Source of the DNA: an uncultured Nitrospiraceae bacterium
Lineage (GTDB): Bacteria > Nitrospirota > Nitrospiria > Nitrospirales > Nitrospiraceae
Direction: 5' to 3'
Length of the DNA stretch: 64,000 nt
Assembly: GCA_963706325.1 (NCBI GenBank)
Contig: CAVPLT010000005.1
Location: 32,001-96,000, forward strand
Made by a program: the position numbers and the translations under genes. Positions 3,652 through 23,389 of this stretch are shown here, piece after piece. Position 1 is the first letter of the stretch; each line of letters opens with the position of its first letter. The notes under the pieces were generated by a model that saw nothing but the letters and a program-made list of their open reading frames with translations, did not search any database and was not told where the DNA came from.

Positions 3652-3744
3652 TTTGGACGATGGAGTCAGGCGATCTCCGGTAGCGACAGCGGAGTTGTCC
3701 TCTGTGTTAGGATGACCAGAGTTAGACCAGCCGGAGGACTACAC

Positions 3745-5493: not shown

Positions 5494-5552
5494 ACACGAG
5501 GGCGAGTGAGTCAGGCGCTTGATTGATTCACTCGCCCGTGGATGAAGTAGGC

Positions 5553-7073: not shown

Positions 7074-7084
7074 GGATGCGATAT

Positions 7085-7267
7085 ATGATGATGCCGGAAC
7101 GTCGTGAAGCCCCGGGCGATCCCATGCCGAAACCGAGCCCATCTGAGGAAGGCGGCGGACCACGTCGGCCCGAAACGGGTTCGCCGGATAAGGATAATCT
7201 TCTGAAGCGAATGCGGAAGGTCGATCCCAAGCAGGCGGAGCGTTACCGGCAGCGAACGGGTGAGTGA
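7085..7267 (+). CDS. ubact: Prokaryotic ubiquitin-like modifier UBact
   Basis: About 60 aa, Pro/Gly/charged disordered sequence ending YRQRTGE, located between dop and prcB; alternative start 7076. Confidence 0.88.
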   Translation: MMMPERREAPGDPMPKPSPSEEGGGPRRPETGSPDKDNLLKRMRKVDPKQAERYRQRTGE

Positions 7268-7325
7268 GACTGGCCAGCGGGACGACGTCCGTGTGTGCGC
7301 GGGCTGCGGCCTCAGAGGAAGGGAT

Positions 7326-7421
7326 AGGGAGCAGACGGACTGCCCTTCTTGCTCGCAGAACGCGCACAATAACACCGTGCTCATCCGATGCGCGCAGTGA
7401 AGGACAGTCCGCCTGCTCCCT
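7326..7421. repeat. 96-bp palindromic intergenic element (REP/MITE-like)
   Basis: 23-bp inverted repeat AGGGAGCAGACGGACTGCCCTTC / GAAGGACAGTCCGCCTGCTCCCT, 21 of 23 complementary. Confidence 0.75.
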
Positions 7422-7483
7422 GGGGAAGAGTGTGCCTTGGAAATGAACAATGGCCAAGCGAATCGGAAAGGTGGAGTATAGCA

Positions 7484-8257
7484 ATGGGGATGCAAGGGGA
7501 CTTTTTCCAGCTTTTGAAAGAGCAAGGTTATCAGTTCGGCAATGCTGTCGCTGGCGCGGTTGGGATGGACATCCCCAATGCCACGACGATCCTGGCGCTC
7601 AAATATCGGGATGGCGTCCTTGTTGCCGGTGATCGTCGCGCTACGGCAGGTAATATGGTTATGTACGATCGGACCGATAAGGTTCTAGAGATCGATCGGC
7701 ACAGTGTCATGGCGATTGCGGGCGTGCCGGCCACCGCCTATGAAATGGTGCGTGTGCTCGAGCATTCGTTCAAATACTATCGACGCACGCAATTGCAGGA
7801 ATTGAGTTTTGAAGGAAAGCTTCGTGCCGTGTCCAAGCTGCTGAAGGAAAATGTGCCGGCGGCGCTGGCCGGGACTGGTGCAGTGGTGCCCGTGTTTGCA
7901 GGGTACGACCATGAGCAGGATGCGGCAAAGATTTACTTCTACGATATTTTGGGGGCTGAATTCGAAGCGGTGGAATATGCCGTATCCGGCTCCGGTTCCC
8001 CGACGATTCGAGGCATTCTCCACTATGTGAATACCTGGGGGCCGCAACCCTTGGCGATGCTTCCGGAGGAGGAGGCCACCATCCAAGCGCTTCGGCTGCT
8101 CACGAGTGCGGCGGAATTCGATTCGGCTACCGGCGGCGTGAATCGCGAACTGAATCTGTATCCGGTCGTCAAGCTCATCACGGCGGCGGGTGTTCAGACT
8201 ATTGCAGGTGAAAATTTGAAACGAATGTATGAGGCGGAAGTGCTTCGGGGCGCGTAG
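7484..8257 (+). CDS. prcB: 20S proteasome beta subunit
   Basis: Propeptide, then TTILALKY...AGDRRATAG and SGSGS. Confidence 0.92.
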   Translation: MGMQGDFFQLLKEQGYQFGNAVAGAVGMDIPNATTILALKYRDGVLVAGDRRATAGNMVMYDRTDKVLEIDRHSVMAIAGVPATAYEMVRVLEHSFKYYRRTQLQELSFEGKLRAVSKLLKENVPAALAGTGAVVPVFAGYDHEQDAAKIYFYDILGAEFEAVEYAVSGSGSPTIRGILHYVNTWGPQPLAMLPEEEATIQALRLLTSAAEFDSATGGVNRELNLYPVVKLITAAGVQTIAGENLKRMYEAEVLRGA

Positions 8258-8319
8258 CCAACCGTCTCCAAGGGATTTCAAGGCAGGATTACCTAGTCAT
8301 ATGCAGAGGGTGACACGTT

Positions 8320-9156
8320 ATGTATGAGGAACCATATCGGTGGGTCGAAGCGGTCGGCAATCGACGGCAATACCTGGACGAGCAATTTACGAAGGGTGCG
8401 CCGGTCGTCGCGTTGGCCTATGCCGATGGCATTGTGATGCTCACCGTCAGTCGCGGCACGCCAAAGCTCTACGAGATCTACGACCGCATCGCTCTCGGCG
8501 GTATGGGGCATCCGGCCGATCTGGAAAAGTTGCGGTTCTCCCTGCTCGAAATGGCGCATGTGGAGGGATTTAATCGTTCGCCATCCGATGTCACTGGTGC
8601 GCGATTGATGAAGTACGGATTGGCTCCCACCATCAAGCAGGCCTTCGAAGAGATTTATAAAGCGCCCTTTATTGCCAAGATCCTGCTGGCCGAATTGGGT
8701 GCCAAGGCCGAGCGCGATCTGTTTTTGACCATCAACTATGATGGAAACTTTGAGGAAACCCGGCGCTGGGCCGCGCTGGGAGCGACACCTGCCGTTCAAT
8801 CAAGGATGGGTCGCTACCTGGAATCTCAACCGGGACTTGCGCAGGCTACGTTATCACAGGCTGTCGATGCTGCTCTTTCTGCTTGGGCGGTGGGCTCGTT
8901 AGCCCAAATTTCAGGGGAGGCCACCGACGGGGAGTCAACCGCTGTGCCTGCTTCGGCGGAACAGTCCGACGAGGTGGCTGTGATACCGGATAGAGCCGTG
9001 CTGTTGGGACATGTGCGACAGACCGTCGGAGAGAAGTCTTTGGAATGTATTCTGTTGGAGCGCAATGGGCCAGGGTCATCGAAATATCGCGCCCTCCGTT
9101 CCGACGAACTCGGCGCTCTCCTTCCTTCGGCGATGAAGACTTCCAGCGCGACCTAA
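8320..9156 (+). CDS. prcA: 20S proteasome alpha subunit
   Basis: KLYEIYDRIALGGMG motif; follows prcB. Confidence 0.88.
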   Translation: MYEEPYRWVEAVGNRRQYLDEQFTKGAPVVALAYADGIVMLTVSRGTPKLYEIYDRIALGGMGHPADLEKLRFSLLEMAHVEGFNRSPSDVTGARLMKYGLAPTIKQAFEEIYKAPFIAKILLAELGAKAERDLFLTINYDGNFEETRRWAALGATPAVQSRMGRYLESQPGLAQATLSQAVDAALSAWAVGSLAQISGEATDGESTAVPASAEQSDEVAVIPDRAVLLGHVRQTVGEKSLECILLERNGPGSSKYRALRSDELGALLPSAMKTSSAT

Positions 9157-9157
9157 T

Positions 9158-10648
9158 ATGCTCAATCGTATTTTTGGGCTTGAAACAGAATATGGCCTGT
9201 TGGTGAATCAGGATCGTCCTGAGTATTCACCCTCGCGGGTGGCCCAACGCATACGCGACCACATCTTTCATGTCGATCGGCGCGGAGTGATGGATCTTCA
9301 TCATCGAGGGCACGATGAGCCGCCTGGTAACGGCGGATTCTTGACAAACGCCGGTCGCATCTATATCGACATGGGGCACTTGGAGTACGCGTCGCCGGAA
9401 TGTACGACGCTGGCAGACCTGGTCGCTTCGGACCGTGCGGGAGATCAAATTATCCAGAATACGGTGACCGCATTGGGCCTGGAAGCCTCCGTCTCGATCA
9501 TCAAAAACAATATCGATCACGAAACTGATGCGACGTTCGGCTCGCACGAAAATTACCTGGTCACTCGACAATTTCCGTTTTCCCGGCGAGGGCTCGGCCC
9601 GCTGGTCACGTTCTTGGTCACGCGGCAAGTATTTACGGGATCCGGGCGGATCGGCTGCGCGAGTGATCCCAACGAATGGGTGCAGGTCGGAGGGCTTATC
9701 TTGCATCGGCCGGGGCTGCGGGATGCCCAGGATCGATCCATCGTGCCGTTCCAAATCTCCCAACGGGCTGACTATATCGTCAACGACTTTTTCGAATGGG
9801 TGCAGCATAACCGGGCGATCGTCAATACGCGAGACGAACCGTTGGCTGATCCCAATCAGTACCGCCGAATCCACCTCCTGTGCGGGGATTCCAATATGGC
9901 TGAATACGCCACGGCCCTCAAAATGGGAACCACCGGGCTCGTGTTGCAATTGATTGAGGCCGGGCAGGCGCCGCGAGGTTTGGGGATCGACGAACCGGTG
10001 GAGGCTCTCCAGGATATTTCACGGGATCCGGATCGTCAGTGGATCGTGCGATTGGAGTCGGGGCAATCGATCTCCGCGATTGATGTTCAAGAACAATTTC
10101 TCGCCGCGGCGCAGCGCTATTGCAAGGGGCAGGACGAAGAGACCGATTGGGTACTGGAGCAATGGGAAGCCGTGCTGGTGGATCTGCGGGGCGACTATGC
10201 GAAGCTGGTGGGCCGAATCGATTGGGCCTCGAAATTATGGCTTTTGGAGACCTATCGTGAGGCGGAGCAGGTTGGGTGGGATGATCCCATGCTGAAGAGC
10301 CTTGATTTGGAATATCACAATCTTCATCCCGCGCGAGGACTGTGTTATGGCTTGGAAGATGAGGGACGCGGTCCTCGATTGACCACCGACAAGGGCGTCC
10401 GTTTGGCGCAAGACAATCCGCCTCGTAACACGCGAGCCTTCGGTCGAGGTGAGCTGGTCCGGCATTTGTTGGGCCATGGCACCTCGGAAACTCCAGGCGA
10501 TGAAGTCGTGGAGGCCGACGATCAGTTGGCCTGCCACTATATTATCAACTGGTCGAATTTCAAAGTGCGGGGCACGTCGCCATTCTTTATGGCGGACCCG
10601 TTCAAAACGTACGTGACGGAAGTTCGCGACCATCTTGCCGGTCGCTAG
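9158..10648 (+). CDS. pafA: PafA-like modifier-protein ligase
   Basis: IFGLETEYG, NAGRIYIDMGHLEYASPEC, KNNID, GSHENY, NTRDEPLAD. Confidence 0.88.
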   Translation: MLNRIFGLETEYGLLVNQDRPEYSPSRVAQRIRDHIFHVDRRGVMDLHHRGHDEPPGNGGFLTNAGRIYIDMGHLEYASPECTTLADLVASDRAGDQIIQNTVTALGLEASVSIIKNNIDHETDATFGSHENYLVTRQFPFSRRGLGPLVTFLVTRQVFTGSGRIGCASDPNEWVQVGGLILHRPGLRDAQDRSIVPFQISQRADYIVNDFFEWVQHNRAIVNTRDEPLADPNQYRRIHLLCGDSNMAEYATALKMGTTGLVLQLIEAGQAPRGLGIDEPVEALQDISRDPDRQWIVRLESGQSISAIDVQEQFLAAAQRYCKGQDEETDWVLEQWEAVLVDLRGDYAKLVGRIDWASKLWLLETYREAEQVGWDDPMLKSLDLEYHNLHPARGLCYGLEDEGRGPRLTTDKGVRLAQDNPPRNTRAFGRGELVRHLLGHGTSETPGDEVVEADDQLACHYIINWSNFKVRGTSPFFMADPFKTYVTEVRDHLAGR

Positions 10649-10656
10649 GTGCTTAC

Positions 10657-11577
10657 CTATCGTCTCATTCCGATCCGCTCGATAGCCCCCTTCGAGACGT
10701 CAAACGCAAACCGCAGTTGCACCGCGAAGTACTTCTGGACCAATCCGGAGCTGTCCAACGGGCGGTCTTCCTCCCGATAAAACGCGACTTCCATGTCCTT
10801 CCAACGAAGGGCAATGCCGATAATCCAGTCAAGTTCCGAGGGATTGAGGGTGTTGCTAGCATCGCGATCGGTAAAGAAATTCATGTCTCCATACAGCACC
10901 ACCTTGTTCTTATACAGATCCAGGTCGGCATGGGCCACGTAGCGGAAGAGCGCCCGTCCCGTATTGTTCGGGCGCGCGAAGTATTGGCTGTTGTAGAAGA
11001 GCCATCCTGCGCCGGCATAGGCCGTGAGATTTTGGTTGGGAAACGTCCGTCGCCACCATGTGGATTCTTGAACGGCTTGGAAGCGGGCCGTCACCAGCGC
11101 ATCGGCATAGGCCTGTTTGAGCCCGCTACGGTCGAGCGGAGCATCGCGTTCATATTGCAGGCGCCAATTGAACCGGTCGAGCACGCCGGTGAACGCAAAG
11201 GTGCCGTCCCATTCAGACAGTTCGATCCATCCGTTAGTGCGGTCCGAGAAAAAGTTCTGATCGGTGTAAAACGTGAGGTACTGCTTGTAAAGGTCCGTTT
11301 CCAAGTGCAGCATGTGCCGCATGCCGACAAGCCCTGAATTGTCCGGCCTGGCGGCGAACGACGGATTCTTTACAAAGGCGCCGGTAAGCAGGTACCCGCC
11401 GAATAGGGTTTCTTCTTCTTCACGACCCTCGCGGCCCGGTTCCTCCATGGAGGGGAGTGGACGTCCATATTTTTCCAGCCCAAATACCTGTCCAACCCCG
11501 AAAGTCGCAAAGAGAAGGCAGCCAGTCAACAGCGCGTGGATGAGTGGTTTTCGATTGCAGCGAGGGCCGGCCATCAT
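10657..11577 (-). CDS. Putative outer-membrane beta-barrel protein with internal two-fold repeat
   Basis: ATG overlaps the upstream stop (ATGA); signal-like N-terminus; amphipathic aromatic strands; duplicated halves. Confidence 0.6.
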   Translation of the reverse strand: MMAGPRCNRKPLIHALLTGCLLFATFGVGQVFGLEKYGRPLPSMEEPGREGREEEETLFGGYLLTGAFVKNPSFAARPDNSGLVGMRHMLHLETDLYKQYLTFYTDQNFFSDRTNGWIELSEWDGTFAFTGVLDRFNWRLQYERDAPLDRSGLKQAYADALVTARFQAVQESTWWRRTFPNQNLTAYAGAGWLFYNSQYFARPNNTGRALFRYVAHADLDLYKNKVVLYGDMNFFTDRDASNTLNPSELDWIIGIALRWKDMEVAFYREEDRPLDSSGLVQKYFAVQLRFAFDVSKGAIERIGMRR

Positions 11578-11972
11578 TCTTGGCAGCGGGCGAAAATCTC
11601 TTCGCAGTCGTTCGAGGCATCTACCGAACTGGGTGCGAAACGGTACTGAACCAACTCGACTCGATTTTGTTGAAGCATCACCGTCGCCCAACAGCCATGA
11701 TGCGCTGTCGGACGGCTGCTCTTTGACGACACCATGGACTCTTCGAGCAGCGGCGCTTCACGGTAATAACGAAGCAGAGTGAACGTTTCATCGTGCCACT
11801 CGCGCAACGGCATGCCGGCGCAGGACAGAACCTCTTCTCTGCTTTGGCCCCGCAACGATTGCTGGTGGGGATATCCTTCCGTGCTAGGTTGGGCCTGGTG
11901 GCAGGCCAGCAGCCACAGCACCGCGATGACGATTAGCAGGCCCTGAACTACCCGAGAGGGAATAGCGTGCAT
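11574..11972 (-). CDS. Small lipoprotein (BamE/OsmE-like motif)
   Basis: LLAC lipobox and GQSREEVLSCAGMP motif. Confidence 0.6.
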   Translation of the reverse strand: MHAIPSRVVQGLLIVIAVLWLLACHQAQPSTEGYPHQQSLRGQSREEVLSCAGMPLREWHDETFTLLRYYREAPLLEESMVSSKSSRPTAHHGCWATVMLQQNRVELVQYRFAPSSVDASNDCEEIFARCQE

Positions 11973-12302
11973 AGAGGTAACTTCCGGCAAAGAACGTACG
12001 GCACACTGGGTAGCATAGCCGTGATGTCAAAGCAACCCAGACGGTTGGACTCGGCCTGGGTGATTCTACGGGGCAGCTCGTATTTCTGGAGATCTGCATG
12101 CGTGAGCGTTGAGGCTCTCCTGCACCCAGGATGTGGACGTGGTTAGGCTGACCGTGTCGTCAGAATTGTGACAATCGTCATTGTTCTGACTAAGGGCCGC
12201 ATCATCGGCAACTATATCATTTGGTAGCGCAATCTTTGACCTGGTAGCAATCAACTAGGGTATTTCTTATAGGTGCCGATATATGTTTTTCTCGGTGAGG
12301 TG

Positions 12303-12330
12303 TTGACAAATGCGTTCATTTCCCTAGAAT
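12303..12330 (+). promoter_or_regulatory. Candidate sigma70 promoter of the PilZ-thioesterase-methyltransferase/kinase operon
   Basis: TTGACA-16 bp-TAGAAT, about 240 nt upstream of ATG 12570. Confidence 0.5.
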
Positions 12331-12569
12331 AAGCTGCGAATACGATCAAGGTAACAGTCAGCTTTTGGCCATATCTGAGGCCGTGCGTGCCGCTTAGTCC
12401 CTCCCTGTCCTATCATCGACATCAGCCTATATCATCTGGAACTGTTCATGCGCTTGCAAGAGCGCAGCCTCGTTTTGGACTCGAAGCCTGGGTAGGCCTT
12501 TGTGATGCCAAGACTGCGCGTTACCACCACGTTGTAAGACCACGGCGAGCAATTTTACAGGAGGAATGC

Positions 12570-15302
12570 ATGTCTAATGATATGGCGATCAGTTGCGAGA
12601 GTGGGTTTGCCGTCGATGCGCTTGAGGAAGTCCGCCCTGCCGCTCTCATACCTGAGCGGAGAAAAACCTCCGAGGTTTGGTCGTTGACCATTGAGGAACG
12701 ACGAGCCTCGCGTCGCTGCCAGGTCCACCTCCCGGCAATATTGCACAACGCAGATGGTCGTCGGAGCGGAGTCGCCAAGAGTATCAGTTTCGGAGGCGTG
12801 TCCTTACATTTCTCCGGGGACGTTCTGGCCCTGCTCAACCAACATATCAGACTGGGGTTTAGTTCCAACGCCGATGAGCTCGACAGTCTTGGAGTGGTGT
12901 GCGGCCTCCGGACATTCGGGAATGGATTTCCGTTCGGCGGGACCGATGCCGAGATCAGTTTGGCCGTTCAATTTGTGCGTCTCAGCCCCGGTGATGAGCA
13001 GGTGATAGCGTCGTTGTTAGCTGAAAAGCACATTGCATCAGGCGGTCTGTGTATCAATGCTGCGCTGGTCTCACAAGAGCATGAAGAAATACTCCTCGAT
13101 GCCGGGACTCGTTCGCCGGTCGTTACTCGCAACTCTCAAGCGTGGTTGGGCGGGGGAGGCGGGGGACCTCGTCAAGAACGACGGCGGCATCGGCGGATTG
13201 CGGTGGGAGTGACGACCCAGGTGCGTCTTCGAAATAGAACCGGTGATCAATGCCTGCCTGGTGCGTTGATGAGAGATTTATCCTCGAACGGGGCCTGCGT
13301 CTATCTGCCGGCTGGAGAAGTCCTGATTGGATCGGAATTGTTTCTGCAATGGACAAGTCTGGCCGGCGGGCCTCAGAATTCGACGGTCGTATCGATATCT
13401 GCTGCGGCCTGTTCTGTGGTGGGTACAGTCGTATGGACGCAGGTGGACCGGCCAGACACGATGCCTGGTGTGCCAGGAGTCGGCCTCCGTGGGATGCTGG
13501 CCGGCCTGCGTTTTCATTCGCTTGAGAAGGGGGCGATGGAGGTCATCGAGCAGTTTCTCATACAGGTACGAGAGGGGACTACGGAGAGCGGGCTGGAGCA
13601 GCCATCGGTGATCAGTGAATTTTCGGAATGCTTTCGGTCGTCCGGATTCCGTATCGTGCTCTGTCACGATCGCCCGCTATCCGAAGTGTCGGATGATGCG
13701 CCGATCGTGGTGTTAGCTCCAGGGTATGGGGAGAGCAAGCGAGATTATGTGCCGCTGGCCTACTATCTCGCGGACAACGGTTTTCATGTCGTACGCTATG
13801 ACAATGTGAACCATGTCGGAGAAAGCGACGGAACCGTGACGCAGTTTCGGTTGCAGGATATGGAACTGGACCTAGCGGCCGTGCTGCAACACGTCGGCGA
13901 CCGATGGCCCGGTCGTTCTCTCGGTCTGGTGGCCACCAGTTTGGCCGGTCGCGTTGCTCTCAAAGTCACCGCGGGGACATCTCATGTGAAGTTGCTGGTG
14001 TTGATCAATGGGATTATGGATGTCCGGCACACCCTTCAGGCCGTGCATCAAGAAGATCTCATTGGCGAGCACCTGGCGGGCATGCGCAAGGGCGTGGTCA
14101 ACATTCTCGGTCTGACTATCGATGCGGATCGTTGGTTGGCACATGCTGTTCAGGGGAATTATGCGGATCTGGCCACGACACAGCGCGATGCCGAACGCCT
14201 GCGGACTCCTATCGTGCTGTTTCACGCCGAGCATGACGCGTGGGTGGACCCTGCGTCTATTGCAACGGTGGAGGCGGCGGTTGGGCCGAATCTGCGCCAT
14301 TCATACGTCGTGTCGGGCGCGTTGCATCGCCTTCAAGAGAGTCCCCGAAAGGCCCGGACGGTCTATCGTCAGATTGCCGAGAGTTGCCAGGAAGAATTAT
14401 GGCCGGATCGTTCTTTCGTGAAGCTGGTTGAACCGTCGCATCGGCAGATAAGTATGCAAAACCGGGTGGAGCGCGAGCGAGGCAAGGCCAGGCGCCCGAT
14501 CGGGAAGTCGGATCACGTGGCCTTTTGGAAAGACTATCTGCAGAATTTTCAGACGATTCCGAATGTCGCCGACTTCTGGCGTCTTATGGATCATGTCTAT
14601 CGCTTGATGGGTGATTGTCACCAGGGTGAACGGATATTAGATGCGGGGTGTGGCAACGGAAACCTTGGCGTATTTCTTCAGCTCAACCAAGCGTTTCGCC
14701 AGCGCTTTGCCAGACGAGGCGACTTTCGCTCTCCTAAGTATGTCGGGCTCGATTTCGTGCCTGCTGCGTTGGCACAAGCGGCGGCGAACTTCCGGCAGGT
14801 GGGAGAGACATTGCAGGGGCAGTTTTATGAGGGGCTGCGAGCGTATGTACCGATGTCGATGAAGCTATGTCGGGCCGACTTGGAGTCGCCCTTGCCGTTT
14901 CCCGATAATAGTTTTGATCGGGTCGTGTGTAATTTGGTGATAGGATATGTGCGAGACCCGCTGTTTACTCTGCGGGAGTACCTCCGTGTGTTGGCCCCGC
15001 ATGGAAGACTCGTGCTCTCAAACTTGAAGCCCTATGCGGATCTTTCTGCCATTTATCGCAGCTTTGTGGATACGGCAAAGACGCCGGATCAGGTGGAGGA
15101 AGGACGTCGACTTCTCGACAACTCCGGGCGAATCAAAGAGCGCGAGGGTGAAGGCATTTTCAACTTTCTTCACCAATCTGAGTTGGAACAGCTGTTGCGG
15201 GCCGCAGGCGCCTCTCATCCGCGGGTCTACCCCACATTCGGAAACCAGGCGCTCATTGCCGTGGCGGAGAAGGGCCTTTCCAGCATGATGGTCGCCGCAT
15301 GA
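12570..15302 (+). CDS. Fusion of two PilZ domains, a LuxD-like acyl-ACP thioesterase/acyltransferase and a class I SAM methyltransferase
   Basis: AGGAGG RBS; RRASRR..SISFGG and RRRHRR..DLSSNG; YLADNGFHVVRYDNVNHVGESDG, ATSLAGR, HDAWV, ALHRL; ILDAGCGNG and LPFPDNSFD. Confidence 0.82.
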   Translation: MSNDMAISCESGFAVDALEEVRPAALIPERRKTSEVWSLTIEERRASRRCQVHLPAILHNADGRRSGVAKSISFGGVSLHFSGDVLALLNQHIRLGFSSNADELDSLGVVCGLRTFGNGFPFGGTDAEISLAVQFVRLSPGDEQVIASLLAEKHIASGGLCINAALVSQEHEEILLDAGTRSPVVTRNSQAWLGGGGGGPRQERRRHRRIAVGVTTQVRLRNRTGDQCLPGALMRDLSSNGACVYLPAGEVLIGSELFLQWTSLAGGPQNSTVVSISAAACSVVGTVVWTQVDRPDTMPGVPGVGLRGMLAGLRFHSLEKGAMEVIEQFLIQVREGTTESGLEQPSVISEFSECFRSSGFRIVLCHDRPLSEVSDDAPIVVLAPGYGESKRDYVPLAYYLADNGFHVVRYDNVNHVGESDGTVTQFRLQDMELDLAAVLQHVGDRWPGRSLGLVATSLAGRVALKVTAGTSHVKLLVLINGIMDVRHTLQAVHQEDLIGEHLAGMRKGVVNILGLTIDADRWLAHAVQGNYADLATTQRDAERLRTPIVLFHAEHDAWVDPASIATVEAAVGPNLRHSYVVSGALHRLQESPRKARTVYRQIAESCQEELWPDRSFVKLVEPSHRQISMQNRVERERGKARRPIGKSDHVAFWKDYLQNFQTIPNVADFWRLMDHVYRLMGDCHQGERILDAGCGNGNLGVFLQLNQAFRQRFARRGDFRSPKYVGLDFVPAALAQAAANFRQVGETLQGQFYEGLRAYVPMSMKLCRADLESPLPFPDNSFDRVVCNLVIGYVRDPLFTLREYLRVLAPHGRLVLSNLKPYADLSAIYRSFVDTAKTPDQVEEGRRLLDNSGRIKEREGEGIFNFLHQSELEQLLRAAGASHPRVYPTFGNQALIAVAEKGLSSMMVAA

Positions 15303-15335
15303 TCACATGAAACAGCGTATGCTAGAGTGCCTTAA

Positions 15336-18300
15336 ATGAAAGTTCTCGCCTTCAGCGCGCTGATCAATGCCTTGGCTGCGACAGGCCTCGGCGTGTTCGT
15401 CTATCTCCGCGATCCAACCGCCGCGCGCAATCGGATTTACGGGCTGTACTGTTTGAGCATTGCCATGTGGAGCGTGTTTTACTGCGGATGGCAGCTCACC
15501 GAATCAAAGGATCTCGCGCTCATTCTGCTGCGCCTGGTGATGGCCGGGGCCACGCTCATTCCTATTCTTTACTTTCATCACACCGTGACCTTTCTCGATA
15601 TCGCGACACGTCACACCAAGACGCTGAAAGTCGGCTATATCCTCGCCGCGGTTTTCTTGCTCCTCGATACCACGCCATGGTTTGTGGCAGGGGTCCATCC
15701 CGCGATGTCGTTCCCCTTCTGGCCGGTGCCAGGCCCCTTCTTTCACCCGTTCCTCCTCTATTTTATCTGGTACGTCGTCTATGCCACCTGTCTTGTCGGC
15801 GTGGCGCTTCGAGATGCCAACGGAATTCGGCGACATCAATACGCCTATATGTTGGCCGCCAGCATTATTGGCTATGCAGGTGGGGCGACAAATTTCCCGC
15901 TCTGGTATGGAGTGCCGCTACTGCCCTACGGGACGGTTCTCATTACGATGTATACGGCGCTGATGGCGTATACGATCGTTCGTTATCGGCTGATGAATAT
16001 CAGTGTGGTGCTGAACAAGGGCCTCGGCTATGCCATTGTGTTGGCCATTATTGTGGTGGCGACTTCAATCGGGGCGGTTCTCAGTCATCGTGCCACCGGA
16101 CACTCGACGCCCCCTTTACTTGCCGGCACACTTTTCCTGATTTGCGCCTTATGGGTACTCAGCAACAATCCCCGGTCGACGGCGAATATCCTGTTCAGCG
16201 GCGTCTGCGGCGCAGCCTGTTTTTGGTTGTTCGGTTGCTTCATGTTGTTCTCGGCGTCTCACGAAGATGAGGCGCACTTTTGGATGCAGGTCATCTATAT
16301 CGGCATTGCACTCTTGCCCGCGTTGACCTATCACTTTGCGCAGAGCCTTACCGGATGGGCCTCCCACGACCGCCTGATCACCTGGAACTATGCCCTTGGC
16401 GGTGTATTTGCAGGACTAGTGTCCACTTCCTACTTATTCGACGGCCACTACATATATTACTGGGGGCGATACCCCAAGGCTGGAGTCCTCCATCCCGCGT
16501 TAGTTTTGTATGTGGTGGCAGGCGGGTGCCTGACTCTTTACCGTCTCTATCAGGGGTACCGTCTGCACGTCCGCTCGTCTCCGCTGTTGGGGGCACAATT
16601 GAAATATACCCTGGCAGCTCTCGCGCTTGGGTTCATGTCCTCTTTCGACTTTCTGCAAAATTACGGCATGGGTTTCTATCCCGTAGGTTACCTGCTCGCG
16701 GGTTTATCGGTCACCGTCGTCGCCTATGCCATTGCTCGCTACGAATTGATGGATGTGTCATTTGTTCCGACCCGCCCCAAAGTGATGCTGTCCATCAAGC
16801 TCATGGGGCTGATTCCGGCCTACATGATGATCCTGCTGGTCATTCGTATTTTTACCGGCACGTTTCACTACTTTTTGGCCGGGGTGCTGTTTGGGTTGTT
16901 CGTCATTGTATCAAGCGGGTTGGCCAACCTTCAGAAAGGCGTGGAGCGGGCCATTGGACAAACGCTGTTTCGGGAGCGCTATGACGCCTACGATACCCTA
17001 GTGCAGTTTTCCAAGTCGCTTGTGGCGATTCTTGAATTGAAGTCTCTCACGAAAGAGATCGTTCAAACGCTGGCGCGAGTGATGAACATCAAGACGGCCT
17101 CGGTGTACGTGCTGGACAAGGAGCAGGGGATCTATAGCTTGACGGCGTCGTATGGGTTTGGATCCCGTGATTCTCAGGTGCCCCCGATCAAGATGGAGAG
17201 CGAATTCCCCAAGGCATTGTTGCGAACGGAAACGGCCCTTGTTCGAGAGGAGATCGAATACGATAAGGCGGATGCTGACCACGTAAGGCTGCTCAATACG
17301 TTGCAAGGGTTGGAGTCAGAAGTCTGCATTCCGTTGATCAGCAAGGAGCGTCTCGTCGGGTTTTGCAACCTGGGGCGTCGGTCCAATCAGGGCATGTACT
17401 CGACTGAGGAACTGGGACTTCTCAAAACCCTGGCGCAACATGCGGCTATCGCGATCGACAATGCCTTGCTCTACGAAGACTTGCGTCGATCGCAACTGCT
17501 GATGCGACGAACCGATCGGCTGCGGTCGCTCGAAACCATGGCCGGTGGGTTTGCGCATGAGATTCGCAATCCCTTGACCTCGATCAAGACATTTGTCCAG
17601 TTGGCGCCTGAGCGACGGGACGATGTGGAATTCATGGAGCAATTTAGCCAGGTGGTGTGTGAAGACGTTGAGCGAATCGAACGGCTCGTTCATGAAATTT
17701 TGGACTATGCGCGGTACATGACTCCAAAGCTTACACAGGAAAGTCTCAACGACGTGGTGTCCTCATGCCTATATTTTATTGAGGTCAAGGCGAGCAGCAA
17801 AGCCATCACGATTCAGAAAGATCTGGCTGCCGATCTCCCTTATGTGAAGTTGGATCGACAACAAATTAAACAGGTCCTGCTGAATCTCTTCATCAATGCC
17901 ATGGAAGCAATCGGCGGTGAGCAAGCAGGCCGGCTGGTTGTCCGAACGCGAAATTTGGTCAGGCCGGCCGATGATCCTTGGGTTCAGATTGAAGTGGAAG
18001 ATAGTGGGCCGGGAATCGAGCCAGGCGATCTCGACCATATCTTCGATCCGTTTTATACGACGAAGCACGAGAGCGGGGAGCGCGAAGGAACGGGGCTTGG
18101 TCTGACCATTGCGCATCAGATTGTTCAAGAGCACGGAGGCTATCTCGAAGTCACCAGTGAAGTCGGCCACGGCACAAAATTCATGGTCAATCTTCCGGTC
18201 AATCCACCAGTTGCGGAATGGCATGCCGCACAGCCAGCCTACGAAGAGGGGCGTAAACTGGTAGGAGCGTTTCTCGCAAGACCCCACCAGGGGTTGGAAG

Positions 18301-18341
18301 AGCAATTCAACAAGCCATCCCCCGTAATCAAGGCCAGCTAG
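15336..18341 (+). CDS. Membrane sensor histidine kinase (two tandem 7TM-type sensor domains, GAF, HisKA, HATPase)
   Basis: Duplicated hydrophobic region; AHEIRNPL H-box, NLFINAMEA, DSGPGI, GTGLGL. Confidence 0.88.
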   Translation: MKVLAFSALINALAATGLGVFVYLRDPTAARNRIYGLYCLSIAMWSVFYCGWQLTESKDLALILLRLVMAGATLIPILYFHHTVTFLDIATRHTKTLKVGYILAAVFLLLDTTPWFVAGVHPAMSFPFWPVPGPFFHPFLLYFIWYVVYATCLVGVALRDANGIRRHQYAYMLAASIIGYAGGATNFPLWYGVPLLPYGTVLITMYTALMAYTIVRYRLMNISVVLNKGLGYAIVLAIIVVATSIGAVLSHRATGHSTPPLLAGTLFLICALWVLSNNPRSTANILFSGVCGAACFWLFGCFMLFSASHEDEAHFWMQVIYIGIALLPALTYHFAQSLTGWASHDRLITWNYALGGVFAGLVSTSYLFDGHYIYYWGRYPKAGVLHPALVLYVVAGGCLTLYRLYQGYRLHVRSSPLLGAQLKYTLAALALGFMSSFDFLQNYGMGFYPVGYLLAGLSVTVVAYAIARYELMDVSFVPTRPKVMLSIKLMGLIPAYMMILLVIRIFTGTFHYFLAGVLFGLFVIVSSGLANLQKGVERAIGQTLFRERYDAYDTLVQFSKSLVAILELKSLTKEIVQTLARVMNIKTASVYVLDKEQGIYSLTASYGFGSRDSQVPPIKMESEFPKALLRTETALVREEIEYDKADADHVRLLNTLQGLESEVCIPLISKERLVGFCNLGRRSNQGMYSTEELGLLKTLAQHAAIAIDNALLYEDLRRSQLLMRRTDRLRSLETMAGGFAHEIRNPLTSIKTFVQLAPERRDDVEFMEQFSQVVCEDVERIERLVHEILDYARYMTPKLTQESLNDVVSSCLYFIEVKASSKAITIQKDLAADLPYVKLDRQQIKQVLLNLFINAMEAIGGEQAGRLVVRTRNLVRPADDPWVQIEVEDSGPGIEPGDLDHIFDPFYTTKHESGEREGTGLGLTIAHQIVQEHGGYLEVTSEVGHGTKFMVNLPVNPPVAEWHAAQPAYEEGRKLVGAFLARPHQGLEEQFNKPSPVIKAS

Positions 18342-18428
18342 ACGACGCGCATAACCGCCATCTCGACCCCTTTGTCCTGGGGAAAACGCTGGGTGTGGTG
18401 TGTCATATTCCGCAGCAGTTGCGCAATC

Positions 18429-19460
18429 TTATCTCCCCGACGGAGACAATCCGAGAGCTCGTGTTCGACTTTCTATTGCGCTGGAAAGCAGAGACACAAT
18501 TCTATTTTCGGCCCAAAACCGATCCTCTCCTGGGCGACCTTTTTGAAGAAATCCACAATGCCCGCCGTACCGCGATAGTATCGTCGTGATGTTCGGATTG
18601 CACCTGACCGCCGGTATGTCGAATATGGAGACGGGAATGAAGGGATCATCCTGCGCGGTCATCACCACTGTGGGAACAGCAATGTTGTGCAGTACGTGAC
18701 GGGCTCCAGCACGATCATAGTAATCGGCCACATTGGCATACCCTCCGTTCCGGGCAGTGTAACAGGCATCGAACTGAGTGATGGTCTTGATCGCCCTCAG
18801 TGGGGTCAGGTCCCATTCGTTCGGAAAGAGTTTTGCCTTTCGTCTCATTCGAGCCTTGAGGGCGGAGAGGAAGTGATAATGATAAAGCCAATTTTCGGGC
18901 TGTTCCAAGGCAGCGACGCAGCGTGTCAGATCAATGTTCGGACTGACTGCCACCACGCCCGCCAATGCCGGCTCAGACCCGCCCATTTCACCCGCGGCCT
19001 TTAGAACAAGATTCCCGCCCATCGAATAGCCCACGAGCCAGATGTTAACCAGCCCTTCCCTTGCGGCGAGTTCACGGACAATCGTTCGATAGTCGCTGCT
19101 GAGACCGCTGTTATAGAGCGTGGGTGTAAGGTGGTCGGTGCCTCCGCAAGTACGCTGATTCATCCGTATGACGTTGAAGCCTGCTCTGTAGGCTTTAGAC
19201 GTAATTCCGCGCATGTAGTGAGAGTCTGCGCATCCTTCTAATCCGTGGACTAGCAGGATGGTCGGCGAGGCCCTGGGGTTGTCTTGCCAATGGCAGAATC
19301 CCAAGAGCTGGGTGTCTTCTTCTACGGTGAAGAGGCGCACGCTTGATGGGATACGCCGCCTAGAATGGTTGCGGGGCCAATACCGAGGCACCAGCGTCAT
19401 GAGATGTGGGTTGCGAAGCAGGAGAGGGGGAACGAAGTCATTCATCAGGTTCATTCCCAT
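18429..19460 (-). CDS. YheT-family alpha/beta hydrolase (esterase)
   Basis: NPHLMT, HGLEG, GYSMGG, DDPFI, GGHCGF. Confidence 0.87.
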   Translation of the reverse strand: MGMNLMNDFVPPLLLRNPHLMTLVPRYWPRNHSRRRIPSSVRLFTVEEDTQLLGFCHWQDNPRASPTILLVHGLEGCADSHYMRGITSKAYRAGFNVIRMNQRTCGGTDHLTPTLYNSGLSSDYRTIVRELAAREGLVNIWLVGYSMGGNLVLKAAGEMGGSEPALAGVVAVSPNIDLTRCVAALEQPENWLYHYHFLSALKARMRRKAKLFPNEWDLTPLRAIKTITQFDACYTARNGGYANVADYYDRAGARHVLHNIAVPTVVMTAQDDPFIPVSIFDIPAVRCNPNITTILSRYGGHCGFLQKGRPGEDRFWAENRIVSLLSSAIESRTRALGLSPSGR

Positions 19461-19992
19461 CCATCTTAAAGGAAAGTCACCGTCTAGTGGAATTGTTTCG
19501 CCTAATGATTGGGGCTATGATCAGGAGTCATGAGGTGGCTGTCGATGAATTGGCCATGTCCGGTATGGCCGGTTCCAACCGAGAAGGTGGGGAGGGTCGT
19601 ATAGTGGAGACGTCCGGGATCTGTGGCCAGGCTATCCGAGTATGGACCGCGGAAGAATATTTTTAATTATTGGTCGAAGGGGCTTTTTATGCAACGACAC
19701 AACCACAGCAAAGAACGTACCCCTCCAGCTGTCGCTATGGCCCCCAGTCTGGCATGCCGACTGATTCAGCCACCCTTGGATCGGCTCGCACTGAGTGGCG
19801 CCTCTTAGGTCGGAACAAGGTTTTTCTCACTCAACATCCCTCCACGTAGCTGGCGATTGGATCTTCTATGACTTGACGAAGATCACCACAAGCCTTTGGC
19901 AGCTTTTTATGATGAGCGAATGAACCTTGCCCGAGGCCGATGCATGCCGGCTTGGCAGCAACTTTTCAATGATGCCGAGGACATTGATGGGT

Positions 19993-21738
19993 TCACATAC
20001 TTCGACCAGCCTTAACCTTCTCGGATTCCAAATTCTGTGAGTCAGTTCCCATGCCAGACGATCGGAACGCTTGGCAAGACTTAAGATACTCGAGGATGGT
20101 CGGCTTCGAGACCTTCAAGGCCTGGAAGGCGTGTCGGATTAAGGTATGAGCCCCCTCGACCTCAGGCAGGATGACTTCCGTTGCTCCCACGTCTTTCAGG
20201 TCTTCAGCCTCGCGAAAGCCATGCGCTCGGGCAAGAAGAGGGGTGCTCTCGTTGAGCTCGCGGAGTCGTCGAAGGGTAAGGGCGGCCTCGTGGATCAATG
20301 GAAGCGCCACAATCACCAGCGCCGCGTGTTGGGCGCCGGCCGCTTTCAGTAATTCCATTTGGGATGCGTCCCCGTAGACGCAGGAAATTCCGCGTCGACG
20401 TAACTGACGAACGTTCTCTGGGTCGCGCTCAATCACGGTGTACGGAAGCTCAAAATGATCGAGGGCGAGCCCCACCGTGCTGCCCATGCGACCAAAACCA
20501 CAGAGCACTACATGTCCGGCTTGGTCGTCAGGAACCCCCCCTTGAATCGGTAAGAAGGCTCGTCCCATTTTGAAGTGCAATGTAGCGATCCACCCCGGCG
20601 CATACCGAACGAGAGGCGCGTTGAGGAGAATACTCAGCAGCGAAGCGGCCAGGGTGGCATTGTAAACATCCTCGCTCACCTGGCCTGCCGTTTTGGCGAC
20701 CTGCACCAACACGAAGGAAAACTCTCCGATCTGCGTGAGACCGACACCCACAAGTAGGGCCGTGCCCCAAGTATAACGAAACAGTCTCACCACCAGCGTC
20801 CAAATGATGAATTTTCCCCCGATAATCAGTCCTAGCATGAGGCCTAGCAGTGGTAGGTTGGCCCATACCACGCGCGGATCGATCAGGATACCGATTGTCA
20901 CAAAGAAAAGCGCCACGAACGCGTCGCGTAGTGAAAGAAGACGGGCTAGCGTTTCATGACCATATTCCGACCCGCTAATGATCAATCCTGCCAGAAACGC
21001 GCCGAGTGCCAGGGATAAACCCGCCAACTGAGTCACGGCTGCCGTCCCGATACCAATAGACAGAGCTACCAATAGAAAGAGTTCCGCATTTTGCGTCCTC
21101 GCGATGCGAGTCAGCAACGGCGGAATAGCTTTGGCCGCGAGATACCCGAAAGGAACCAAAATCAGGACCGCTAGCCATAAGGCCTTCCCAATGGTTGCAA
21201 AGCGGCCCGGTTCCAGAGCGCCGAGCGCCGGGATCAGCACGGTGAGCGCGACCACCGCCAGGTCTTCCACAAGGGTGATCCCGATCATTACCCTGCCATG
21301 CTTGGCACGCAAGTCTCCGCTGTCCAGAAGCAAGCGCGCCAGAACCATCGTGCTGGCCACGGATACCACCGACCCGATTACGACGCTTTGAATCCAACTC
21401 CAACCCACCACATGGCCAAGACCGACGGAGAGGAGAATGGAAAGAAAGATGCCGAGTGGCCCTCCCAGTAGGGCGACCCAGCGAACCCGCAACAAATCGT
21501 TCAGGGAAAATTCAATGCCGATGCAGAACATCAGCAGGATCACGCCAATCTCGGCAAACAATTCGAAACTATGAACATCCGAAATGGAGGGACCGGGAGT
21601 CAGGGGGCTGATCAAAATCCCGCCGAAGACATATCCAAGAATCAGCGGTTGACGAAGGAGATAAGCGGAGGAGCCACCTAGGACGGCGGCAGTAAAGACG
21701 TAAGCGAGATCTCGGAAGAAAATGGGATCAGGGGCCAT
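19993..21738 (-). CDS. CPA2 cation:proton antiporter with TrkA-N domain (YbaL/Kef-like)
   Basis: Multi-TM region, QIGEFSFV, GFGRMG Rossmann motif, YGDAS. Confidence 0.88.
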   Translation of the reverse strand: MAPDPIFFRDLAYVFTAAVLGGSSAYLLRQPLILGYVFGGILISPLTPGPSISDVHSFELFAEIGVILLMFCIGIEFSLNDLLRVRWVALLGGPLGIFLSILLSVGLGHVVGWSWIQSVVIGSVVSVASTMVLARLLLDSGDLRAKHGRVMIGITLVEDLAVVALTVLIPALGALEPGRFATIGKALWLAVLILVPFGYLAAKAIPPLLTRIARTQNAELFLLVALSIGIGTAAVTQLAGLSLALGAFLAGLIISGSEYGHETLARLLSLRDAFVALFFVTIGILIDPRVVWANLPLLGLMLGLIIGGKFIIWTLVVRLFRYTWGTALLVGVGLTQIGEFSFVLVQVAKTAGQVSEDVYNATLAASLLSILLNAPLVRYAPGWIATLHFKMGRAFLPIQGGVPDDQAGHVVLCGFGRMGSTVGLALDHFELPYTVIERDPENVRQLRRRGISCVYGDASQMELLKAAGAQHAALVIVALPLIHEAALTLRRLRELNESTPLLARAHGFREAEDLKDVGATEVILPEVEGAHTLIRHAFQALKVSKPTILEYLKSCQAFRSSGMGTDSQNLESEKVKAGRSM

Positions 21739-22001
21739 GGGTCTTCTCACATAGAAGGCCGTACTTTGGTGCAGCATAGCATGAACGAGCGCTGACTGAT
21801 GCGATAAGTGAAATGATAAAGGATTGTTTGATGGGGCGATCGCGCTGAATATTTAGCCATTATCAGTCATGGCGGTTTGCATCGCGCAGTTCCTCCGTTG
21901 TTTGATCAGTAGTGCTGTTTTAGCAGCTTATGTAATGACTCTATATGAGCTGATGAATAGCCGCGATAGATAGGAGGCATAAGTTGAATGAAAATGTCTG
22001 A

Positions 22002-22146: not shown

Positions 22147-23010
22147 TTAACCAGAGTAGACGGCCTCTTCGACGATCGGTTGTCGCTGACGTTGTGCGAC
22201 ACACTCACGTGGGGTCAGGTGCCCAAGCGAGCTGTGAGGCCGACGCTGATTGTAGTCCACGCGCCAGGCTTCGATAATGGCCTGGGCCTCGGCCAGCGAA
22301 GCGAACTGGTGCACGTTCAAACACTCGTCTCGTAGGCGCCCGTTACACGATTCAATAAAGGCGTTTTTCACGGGTTTGCCCGGTCGAATGAAGTCCAACT
22401 GCACACCGCGCCGATAGGCCCAATCCTCCCAGGCTCGCGATTGAAATTCCGTCCCATGATCGACCGTGATCGAGCGAGGCACCGCTGGTATGTCCAGCAC
22501 ACGATCCAGCACCTGACCGACCGTCTGTCCCGTCATCCGAAACCCTGCCTCTAGTAGGGGACTGTGCCGACTCCAATTATCCACGACCGTCAAGATCCGA
22601 AACGGCCGCCCATCGGCCAGCGTATCATGGACAAAATCCATGCTCCAGCGCTCGGTCGGGCCCACCGGGACTGGAGCCGGGCCTCGGTGCAATGCGATAT
22701 GTTTTCGTCTCCGCACCCGCATCCGTAGCTGTAATCCATCGAGGCGGTAGAGCCGCCGGACGCGTGTGCGATTCACCGGCCAGCCCTCGCGACGCCGTAA
22801 CACCCCGATGCGCATGGAGCCAAATCGAGGTCGGGCATGGGCCAGATCGCGAATGCGCAACCGTCATGCGGACTGAGCCTTAGCCCGACGCCGGCGATAC
22901 CAAGAGGCTCGGCCGAATTGCGCCAACCGACAGGCCCGCAGGCAACTGACGCGGAAGGTATCTTGAAACCAGCCAGCCAGTTCTCGACGGCGTGCGGGCC
23001 TTAGACTTTT
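22147..23010 (-). pseudogene. IS3 transposase OrfB with in-frame stop
   Basis: WSMDF, TVDHGTEF, GRLRDECLN, YNQRRPHSSLG; TGA at 22864-22866 in the -1 frame. Confidence 0.82.
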
Positions 23011-23267
23011 TTTCGCAGGGCCTCCGACAGCATATGTTTATCGAGCGAGAGGTCTGCCACTAGCCGTTTGAGTCGGGCGTTTTCCTCTTCCACCTGGCGC
23101 AACCGACGGAGCTCGCTCACGCCCAGATGCGCATACTTCTTTTTCCAGGTGTAGCAGGTGGCCTCGCTGACGCCGAGCTGCCGACAGAGGTCGCCAGTCG
23201 GGGTCCCACTCTCGGCTTGCCGCATGGCATAAACGATCTGCTCTTCAGAGCATCGTGACCGCTTCAT
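23001..23267 (-). CDS. IS3 transposase OrfA (HTH), degenerate
   Basis: MKRSR.SEEQI...LCRQLGVSEAT.YTWKKKY...EENARLKRLVADLSLD. Confidence 0.8.
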   Translation of the reverse strand: MKRSRCSEEQIVYAMRQAESGTPTGDLCRQLGVSEATCYTWKKKYAHLGVSELRRLRQVEEENARLKRLVADLSLDKHMLSEALRKKV

Positions 23268-23389
23268 CGATCCACTCCTTTCGTCGAGGACCGCCGCAGC
23301 CGCCATGTTACTCTCGTTTTGATCTGCCGTCGCTTTCCGGGGAGACGTCACAGGCTAGTACAGCACGGTCAGGAGGGTGCCTGCGTGCA

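Follow-up and report, generated by a model that had tools for sequence, protein, structure and literature searches.

Two co-oriented genes in a 64,000-nucleotide stretch of the uncultured Nitrospiraceae bacterium assembly GCA_963706325.1 (contig CAVPLT010000005.1, positions 32,001 to 96,000; hereafter, the window) encode a putative signal synthase and a membrane-bound histidine kinase that may be its cognate receptor (Table 1). An initial annotation had recognized these genes and a convergent esterase gene, and all three are present as it described. It had overlooked a GAF domain in the kinase, conserved promoter elements and a paralogous locus with response regulators.

The synthase gene has the ribosome-binding site AGGAGGA immediately 5′ of its ATG. 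As annotated, its product is a fusion of two PilZ domains, a LuxD-type thioesterase and a methyltransferase (the last two together abbreviated TE-MT). Pfam recognizes two stretches of PF07238 (8e-19) and an Acyl_transf_2/LuxD-like domain at residues 371-606 (1e-25), with the class I methyltransferase at about 672-880. With E up to 0.1 as the limit, the Pfam matches of this 910-aa protein include no family of the RpfF type (enoyl-CoA hydratase). The Vibrio myristoyl-acyl carrier protein (ACP) thioesterase LuxD (1THT) is the sole close solved relative of the thioesterase domain (3e-19). The nucleophile elbow and catalytic triad align, with Ser457, Asp556 and His586 in register with the Ser, Asp and His of 1THT. 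Unlike LuxD, the domain is part of a fusion with a methyltransferase; among the neighbours scanned, no other lux gene was recognized; and the protein scores 87.4 bits, below the LuxD equivalog cut-off of 420. The domain is probably a thioesterase or acyltransferase, as predicted from these motifs, with hydrolysis of acyl-ACP as a putative activity. In the methyltransferase, the DAGCGNG motif and the acidic residue after strand 2 are intact, and both are invariant across 76 intact homologues. Named homologues belong to Nitrospira or Nitrospiraceae, and the genome itself is Nitrospira-like. Two relatives (L032:6436-10029 and L033:7585-11133) carry an additional C-terminal region of about 300 aa that has no Pfam match.

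The kinase begins 33 bp downstream and, as the initial annotation had stated, has two membrane sensor repeats. These are two stretches of the Pfam domain HisKA_7TM (PF16927), which scores 67 bits against a gathering score of 28.6. They are followed by GAF (residues 567-708), HisKA (733-793, with His741) and HATPase (840-956) domains. The protein thus falls into the class of HisKA_7TM sensor kinases, and the top Atlas clusters agree. An AlphaFold2 model of repeat 1 (predicted local distance difference test score, pLDDT, 93) has seven helices and a beta-hairpin. Its best structural matches are the seven-transmembrane (7TM) domains of G-protein-coupled receptors (GPCRs), such as ADGRL3 (Z 16.4, rmsd 3.9, 207 residues aligned; Foldseek E about 1e-3). 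Given that helical bundles generally score high, this likeness is evidence of a shared arrangement, not of function or descent. The 73 sensor repeats that we compared match no LuxN model, matching LIC10906 (46 members) and PrsK (1) instead, and have no PDB sequence match at E up to 1. "LuxN-like", as the sensor had been called, is an analogy only. Excerpts of one paper that uses the term HisKA_7TM name no ligand for this domain.

Pairing of TE-MT and kinase, and joint loss of catalytic Ser and sensor

The fusion is matched in 45 of 61 related genomes. Among 37 genomes of the same genus (its own included), 30 have a full match of the window's type and two more have pieces. A profile search of 1.84 billion representative proteins yielded 456 clusters with E of 1e-30 or better, and stand-alone TE-MT proteins of 550-590 aa make up many of them. 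Ser-Asp-His is kept in 90 of 151 aligned family representatives, and one TE-MT representative is named as Omnitrophota. Two pattern scans sampled their respective collections. A metagenome scan, whose motif left out the catalytic Ser, found 120 loci (80 with flanks; GC 0.35-0.68). In a scan of contigs, full-length examples among the matches listed occur only in Nitrospirota and one other record.

We pooled all loci and removed redundancy at 90%, which kept 118 of 154 TE-MT loci. Ser-Asp-His is present in 78 of the 118. The TE-MT gene is directly followed by a 7TM kinase in 70 of these; in one more the kinase is fused by a probable frameshift, and in another a PilZ-UndA gene intervenes. Five of the remaining loci stop at a contig edge and one lacks a kinase. 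A HisKA_7TM kinase therefore follows in 72 of the 73 informative loci with an intact triad, which is far above chance. Two Ser-Glu-His proteins likewise precede a 7TM kinase, and six rows are partial. The pairing extends to Verrucomicrobiota, the phylum of a Chthoniobacteraceae genome, where 11 of 301 genomes have a TE-MT; all 11 are intact and all 11 are followed by a 7TM kinase. Conservation of the gene pair across genomes, proposed in the initial annotation as a check, is thus upheld. Among 201 genomes from the phylum of a Kofleriaceae genome, 5 have divergent thioesterase forms, with no 7TM domain detected inside 1.5-kb flanks, and the thioesterase alignment found no match in 251 genomes from the phylum of a Desulfobaccales genome.

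The catalytic Ser is absent from 32 proteins. Twenty of these precede a GAF-kinase that has no 7TM sensor, two have no kinase, and seven are followed by another PilZ-enzyme (as in L302). Two of the others keep a 7TM kinase alone, and one is broken. On a tree built without the triad columns (FastTree, 110 rows, with 8 gappy rows out of 118 excluded), the Ser was lost at least five times. The sensor or kinase was lost in three places, each inside a Ser-less lineage.

Several loci depart from this gene pair. A 1641-aa enzyme-kinase fusion (L224) was treated as a frameshift, because its methyltransferase end is out of frame. Divergent PilZ-TE-MT proteins of about 850-1050 aa occur in L061 (genome G218), L062 (G276) and L334-L338. 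Those of L061 and L062 lie behind a FadL gene and an acyl-CoA dehydrogenase gene. In L062 the following kinase is of the form HK-REC-HK and has a different N-terminal region, so that the same type of synthase is accompanied by a second receptor type. An extended cluster (L154:2231-14561) has several receptors around a single synthase: it contains a two-repeat 7TM kinase, a FadL-like gene, a P450, a PilZ-TE-MT, a stand-alone 7TM protein and further 7TM kinases.

Exchange of the enzyme with sensor repeat 1

With the kinase membrane region as query, we found a match in 92 of 201 family genomes, and we mapped the gene content of 37 kinase loci and three porin loci. In Nitrospirales, the gene before the kinase, wherever visible, encodes an acyl-chain enzyme with a PilZ or PilZ-like N-terminus. 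Eight types of enzyme occupy this slot: TE-MT, UndA (which matches solved UndA at 1e-30), FabH-type, FabF-like, hydroxymethylglutaryl-CoA (HMG-CoA)-reductase-like, aldehyde dehydrogenase, acyl-ACP reductase/PigE-like and hotdog thioesterase. This exchange of unrelated enzymes with matched sensor repeats is the unexpected result of our analysis.

The exchange is visible at the window's own site, between pafA and yheT. There, genomes G027 (same genus), G347 and G389 have a PilZ-UndA enzyme and G402 has a PilZ-FabF enzyme. A blastn comparison of the window with G027 (L283) finds homology at 9002-11909 (78%) and 15997-18320 (79%), and none between. Repeat 1 of the two kinases is 33% identical, while repeat 2 is 82% identical. 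In four swapped loci, kinase identity is about 0.3 up to the vicinity of residue 220 and about 0.9 thereafter.

By repeat 1, the nearest neighbour among 35 non-redundant two-repeat kinases shares the enzyme type in 34 of 34 cases; by repeat 2 it does so in 15 of 34. A quick IQ-TREE tree of repeat 1 needs 7 changes of enzyme label, which is the minimum for 8 labels (shuffled labels: mean 22.4, minimum 17). The repeat 2 tree needs 18 (shuffled mean 22.3, minimum 16). Repeat 2 therefore groups by lineage and repeat 1 by enzyme. In a FastTree tree of the repeats, the enzyme-matched clades of repeat 1 reach across chromosomal sites and families, and that of TE-MT across phyla as well. Because the enzyme and repeat 1 lie next to each other in the DNA, linkage could account for some of their co-inheritance; it does not, however, account for the matching across chromosomal sites. 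To judge from these comparisons, the co-exchange is the strongest evidence that repeat 1 would read the product of the enzyme.

In the staphylococcal agrBDC and Bacillus comQXP systems, a variable block consisting of the signal gene and the 5′ sensor part of the kinase gene lies between constant flanks. The cassette appears to behave like such a pherotype cassette, with a cognate synthase and receptor: a signal-making gene and the sensor-encoding 5′ end of the kinase gene vary, and the transmitter is constant. Unlike those systems, which vary a peptide within one enzyme family, unrelated small-molecule enzymes are swapped here.

Among the slot enzymes, the PilZ-FabF-like ketosynthases of L286:5546-7273 and L295:5805-8066 keep the active Cys and have Tyr at both His positions, and they are possibly non-elongating transacylases. 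The PilZ-HMG-CoA-reductase-family fusions that precede a 7TM kinase in six loci (L296, L298, L300, L301, L304 and L306) apparently keep their catalytic residues. These same proteins have substrate-site changes, and each is a candidate for a new acyl-thioester reductase.

Regulation, paralogue and neighbouring genes

In most Nitrospirales loci, the gene order is synthase, kinase, an activator with receiver (REC) and sigma-54 domains, and a REC-HD(-GYP) protein. The window has no linked regulators. In this genome, a REC-sigma-54 activator and a REC-HD protein lie on another contig, C4, in a degenerate paralogue of the cassette that adjoins recN (C4:294283-301284, minus strand; L031:4929-13284). 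The paralogue consists of a dead TE-MT, a GAF-kinase without a membrane sensor, the activator and the REC-HD gene. Its TE-MT is a 1399-aa REC-PAS-pseudo-kinase-PilZ-PilZ-TE-MT protein with Asp in place of the Ser and no His, and such dead TE-MT/GAF-kinase pairs are conserved across Nitrospiraceae. The dimerization and histidine phosphotransfer domain of the window kinase is 74% identical to that of the C4 kinase, the next best being 38%; hence the C4 activator is a likely partner of the window kinase, as judged by this resemblance.

Three promoter elements precede the synthase gene (Table 1). Of 76 intact synthases, 20 have a strong sigma-54 site upstream; the corresponding counts are 1 of 34 for dead or partial synthases and 14 of 639 for background genes. 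The tandem palindrome is kept in 25 of 28 orthologous upstream regions and was not found in the other genera examined, which makes it genus-specific. It resembles the FleQ box (PMC8125075; this and the other papers are cited from excerpts). In L070 and L073 the palindrome stays near the lipoprotein gene, and its link to the synthase is therefore uncertain; it may instead serve that divergent gene. A search of positions 10000-20500 against Rfam, with E up to 1, gave no match.

Whether cyclic di-GMP (c-di-GMP) gates the synthase, as first annotated, is a matter of the PilZ domains. PilZ2 has both canonical c-di-GMP motifs (R204xxxR208 and D236xSxxG). PilZ1 has R45xxxR49, with Ser in place of D/N, and a Ser variant is reported to bind c-di-GMP in PA2989 (10.1101/814665). 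Many orthologues carry DxTxxG, and 4 of 30 close orthologues have a truncated PilZ2. PilZ is absent from 27 stand-alone TE-MT proteins, while others carry START or REC-PAS instead. The presence of PilZ on nearly all Nitrospirales slot enzymes, together with the usual HD-GYP gene in the cassette, suggests a feedback loop. From these motifs, gating of the synthase by c-di-GMP is possible, though slightly short of an even prospect, and it would be at most a lineage add-on rather than part of the core. At L171:4553-6646, a HisKA_7TM-GAF-GGDEF diguanylate cyclase gene directly precedes a PilZ-START-TE-MT gene and its 7TM kinase. This set lies inside a cell-wall gene cluster and represents a direct link to c-di-GMP.

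Table 1. Genes, domains and promoter elements of the cassette and its flanks (positions are those of the window; aa, residues of the synthase)
Feature	Position	Strand	Remarks
Outer-membrane-protein-like gene	10657-11691	−	Atlas "Outer membrane protein" cluster, weak recognition score
Divergent lipoprotein-like gene	11574-11990	−	
Variable cassette	11910-15996		Promoter region, synthase gene and 5′ end of kinase gene; in G027, PilZ-UndA and a different repeat 1
Tandem palindrome GTCA-N6-TGAC-N4-GTCA-N6-TGAC	12159-12190		Candidate enhancer-binding-protein site; sole exact copy in the genome
Sigma-70-type promoter TTGACA-16-TAGAAT	12303-12330	+	11/12 consensus; conserved in 25/28 orthologues
Sigma-54-type −24/−12 element GG-N10-GC	12437-12451	+	8/12 consensus here; conserved in 24/28 orthologues
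Putative signal synthase gene	12570-15302	+	910 aa; PilZ1-PilZ2-LuxD-type thioesterase-methyltransferase
Synthase PilZ1	~aa 43-150		
Synthase PilZ2	aa 203-331		
Synthase thioesterase/acyltransferase	aa 345-640		
Synthase class I S-adenosylmethionine (SAM) methyltransferase	aa 640-902		DAGCGNG at 691
Kinase gene	15336-18341	+	1001 aa; HisKA_7TM x2-GAF-HisKA-HATPase
Kinase sensor repeat 1 (HisKA_7TM)	15336-16001	+	Seven helices and beta-hairpin; candidate specificity module travelling with the enzyme
Constant kinase part	16002-18341	+	Second HisKA_7TM repeat (~aa 255-477 of the kinase), extra membrane helices, GAF, HisKA, HATPase
yheT-like esterase gene	18429-19460	−	343 aa, convergent; resident neighbour, probably outside the system

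The convergent gene does encode a YheT-like hydrolase, which matches PRK10985 at 1.9e-51 and 175 bits, under the 267-bit cut-off. The initial annotation had suggested that it might quench the signal, and we rejected this role. The gene is widespread (67 of 81 family genomes) and also occurs where the cassette does not: in 12 genomes examined, yheT follows pafA without an intervening gene of more than 171 aa in 7, and a TE-MT is there in none. Moreover, yheT is near only 8 of the 118 non-redundant TE-MT loci, all at one site. It is a resident gene beside which the cassette inserted. After the kinase in seven loci of one Nitrospirales family (L037, L053-L055, L082, L084 and L085), the convergent gene encodes an O-methyltransferase (PF00891), not an esterase.

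The interval between pafA and yheT is an insertion hot spot that holds different genes in different genera. Before it, on the plus strand at about 3700-10648, lies a cluster of the Pup-proteasome type, in which the Pup ligase (9158-10648) is identified by Pfam and the upstream genes are named by sequence resemblance alone. The outer-membrane-protein-like and lipoprotein-like genes (10657-11990) belong to no Pfam or NCBIfam family and are highly conserved in Nitrospiraceae, being found in 151 of 201 family genomes. This pair was co-inserted at the window's site in L278, L283 and L287 and is absent in L284-L286. We regard the pair as loosely associated and rejected it as a core part of the system, because it occurs widely at other sites and some cassettes lack it. 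Just past yheT, both on the minus strand, are open reading frames for a YbaL/Kef-type potassium antiporter (19993-21777) and an IS3-like transposase (22147-23351, named by eye). Neither was seen there in the relatives that were mapped.

A candidate lipid signal and competing explanations

Several observations bear on the nature of the product. An outer-membrane channel of the FadL family adjoins 20 of 27 stand-alone TE-MT genes, and 5 of the 7 misses are contigs shorter than 8 kb. FadL carries a fatty acid of the DSF (diffusible signal factor) type in Salmonella (PMC7504960), and 1-undecene, the product of UndA, is a reported intraspecies communication signal (PMC10614000). Other TE-MT versions have START/polyketide-cyclase domains, or P450 and acyl-CoA dehydrogenase neighbours. 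A model of the methyltransferase (pLDDT 86) has OxaG, BelI, NovO and CmoA as its top matches, tied at Z 20.3-20.6; the tie spans C-, N-, O- and carboxyl methyltransferases. BioC and Mtf2 models match weakly, like many others. A fatty-acid methyl ester would be the simplest outcome of fusing a thioesterase to a methyltransferase, and we give this product an even chance.

We propose that the two genes are a cognate signal synthase and receptor, which is quite probably the best explanation of the locus as a whole. Near-obligate pairing across phyla, co-loss, co-exchange of enzyme and repeat 1, and the FadL neighbours strongly support it. The core of the first annotation, a synthase and receptor of a lipid signal, is supported by the same observations, whereas its quencher is not. 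In the proposed mechanism, the LuxD-type domain would remove an acyl chain from acyl-ACP or acyl-CoA, and methylation of the product by the SAM-dependent domain would give, in the simplest case, a fatty-acid methyl ester. The hydrophobic product would diffuse and bind the GPCR-fold repeat 1 of the kinase. The kinase could then phosphorylate the REC-sigma-54 activator and perhaps the REC-HD-GYP protein too. The sigma-54 promoters 5′ of the synthase would permit autoregulation, and PilZ may let c-di-GMP tune synthesis. The basis of this scheme is what can be read from the genomes, namely intact catalytic motifs, gene order, co-loss and co-exchange; the product, its binding and its effect between cells are our proposal. 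That the two genes form a small-molecule synthase/receptor pair of some kind appears highly probable on these grounds, and that the signal acts between cells we consider fairly probable.

The enzyme might instead turn the acyl-ACP or acyl-CoA pool into a reporter that is read by the kinase in the same membrane, so that the cell senses its own lipid flux and nothing passes between cells. RsbQ/RsbP follows a comparable logic. Acyl chains or acyl thioesters are the substrates of all eight slot enzymes, and the REC, PAS and PilZ inputs that the enzyme carries point to integration inside the cell. However, the chemistry at one site has been exchanged repeatedly within a genus or family, which suits social signals that diversify better than a metabolic gauge that is fixed, and a channel in the outer membrane adjoins most stand-alone forms. 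We regard flux sensing as unlikely. It is also conceivable that c-di-GMP controls a fusion whose target is a protein, either the kinase or another, which it would bind, acylate or methylate, like MapZ-CheR, with no diffusible product. This would suit the dead REC-PAS-pseudo-kinase-PilZ-TE-MT proteins that are conserved beside sensor-less GAF kinases in Nitrospiraceae, this genome included, and the fold comparison, which fits several kinds of methyl acceptor. Yet unrelated folds (alpha/beta hydrolase, UndA bundle, thiolase, HMG-CoA reductase, aldehyde dehydrogenase and hotdog) each have their own repeat-1 clade, which makes a single mechanism of protein contact unlikely, and we find regulation at the protein level very improbable.

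Alternatively, the kinase could sense an outside cue and control an adjacent enzyme for a volatile or lipid, with repeat 1 as a hitchhiker. Enzyme and repeat 1 are indeed contiguous within the exchanged block, and the sigma-54 sites put the enzyme under the cassette's own regulator. But four independent swaps have their breakpoint near codon 220, within the kinase gene; the repeat-1 clades that match an enzyme extend over different chromosomal sites, families and phyla; and loss of the sensor is confined to cases with a dead enzyme. Such regulated biosynthesis seems the least probable of these explanations.

Some observations weigh against a synthase and cognate receptor. In L090 an intact TE-MT has no kinase, in L183 and L315 a 7TM kinase persists behind a dead thioesterase, and in L033 the thioesterase is intact but repeat 1 is of the UndA type. 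The FabF-like slot partner lacks both catalytic His residues. The 20 dead, sensor-less loci are one orthologous clade plus L080; their counts thus overstate independence, and the independent events are few. Likewise, a single clade contributes 13 of the 20 strong sigma-54 sites. That dead TE-MT/GAF-kinase pairs are kept across Nitrospiraceae means that these proteins also have a role that needs no signal. Canonical motifs are GYP in HD-GYP proteins and GAFTGA in sigma-54 activators; the C4 proteins have GNP and GSFTDA. Finally, fold and sequence comparison of the methyltransferase fit a C-, N-, O- or carboxyl acceptor alike.

The cassette resembles established systems in part. In the Phc system of Ralstonia (phcBSRQ), a SAM-dependent methyltransferase gene (phcB) lies directly before a membrane kinase gene (phcS), and the signal is a fatty-acid methyl ester (PMC13220807). 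Here, by contrast, the enzyme joins a LuxD-type thioesterase with a class I methyltransferase, the receptor is a HisKA_7TM-GAF-histidine kinase, and the output is a sigma-54 activator and HD-GYP. No PhcB or PhcS model is among the best 25 NCBIfam matches listed, a comparison that did not extend to the PhcB and PhcS sequences themselves. In the DSF system, RpfF makes a fatty-acid signal through acyl-ACP thioesterase activity, and a membrane kinase and a c-di-GMP-degrading response regulator follow (PMC13220807, PMC13660987). As in Xanthomonas RpfF/RpfC/RpfG, a REC-HD-GYP protein follows the kinase in many cassette loci; it is linked and has GYP in L033, whereas it is unlinked and has GNP in this genome. 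RpfF belongs to the enoyl-CoA hydratase family, however, and the cassette has an added methyltransferase and a different sensor. The Vibrio systems LuxM/LuxN and CqsA/CqsS also place a synthase of an acyl-derived signal next to a multi-pass membrane kinase, but no N-acyl-homoserine lactone (AHL) synthase or pyridoxal-phosphate enzyme occupies the slot among the loci seen.

We found no description of the cassette in the literature searched, whose scope excluded subscription papers and bioRxiv supplements. It is absent from the excerpts of PilZ surveys, an archaeal kinase census, a wastewater quorum-sensing survey and a Nitrospira AHL study. The cassette is a real feature. We class it as a new family of putative synthase-receptor cassettes, of the already known kind in which a signal synthase is combined with a membrane kinase. 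A broader generalization could equally well hold or fail. According to it, the HisKA_7TM domains in this clade would be bacterial receptors of GPCR fold that detect acyl-derived signals made by the cells themselves, in a plug-in pherotype system of Nitrospirota, Verrucomicrobiota and probably Omnitrophota. Unrelated enzymes would be swapped with the matching repeat to give methyl ester, alkene, aldehyde, alcohol and ketone "dialects", with c-di-GMP feedback through PilZ.

If the proposal is correct, it would give HisKA_7TM sensor domains their first class of ligand. Swaps of wholly unrelated enzymes with a matched half-receptor would go beyond the peptide pherotypes of agr and comQXP, and the natural swaps are a ready enzyme-by-receptor matrix that is directly testable in E. 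coli. Should TE-MT proteins make methyl esters from acyl-ACP, they would be of interest for biofuel and volatile-sensor engineering. The literature on signalling in Nitrospira, as far as excerpted, covers AHL signalling (PMC8553950). For this nitrifier of wastewater flocs and biofilms, the cassette would be a non-AHL channel of communication.

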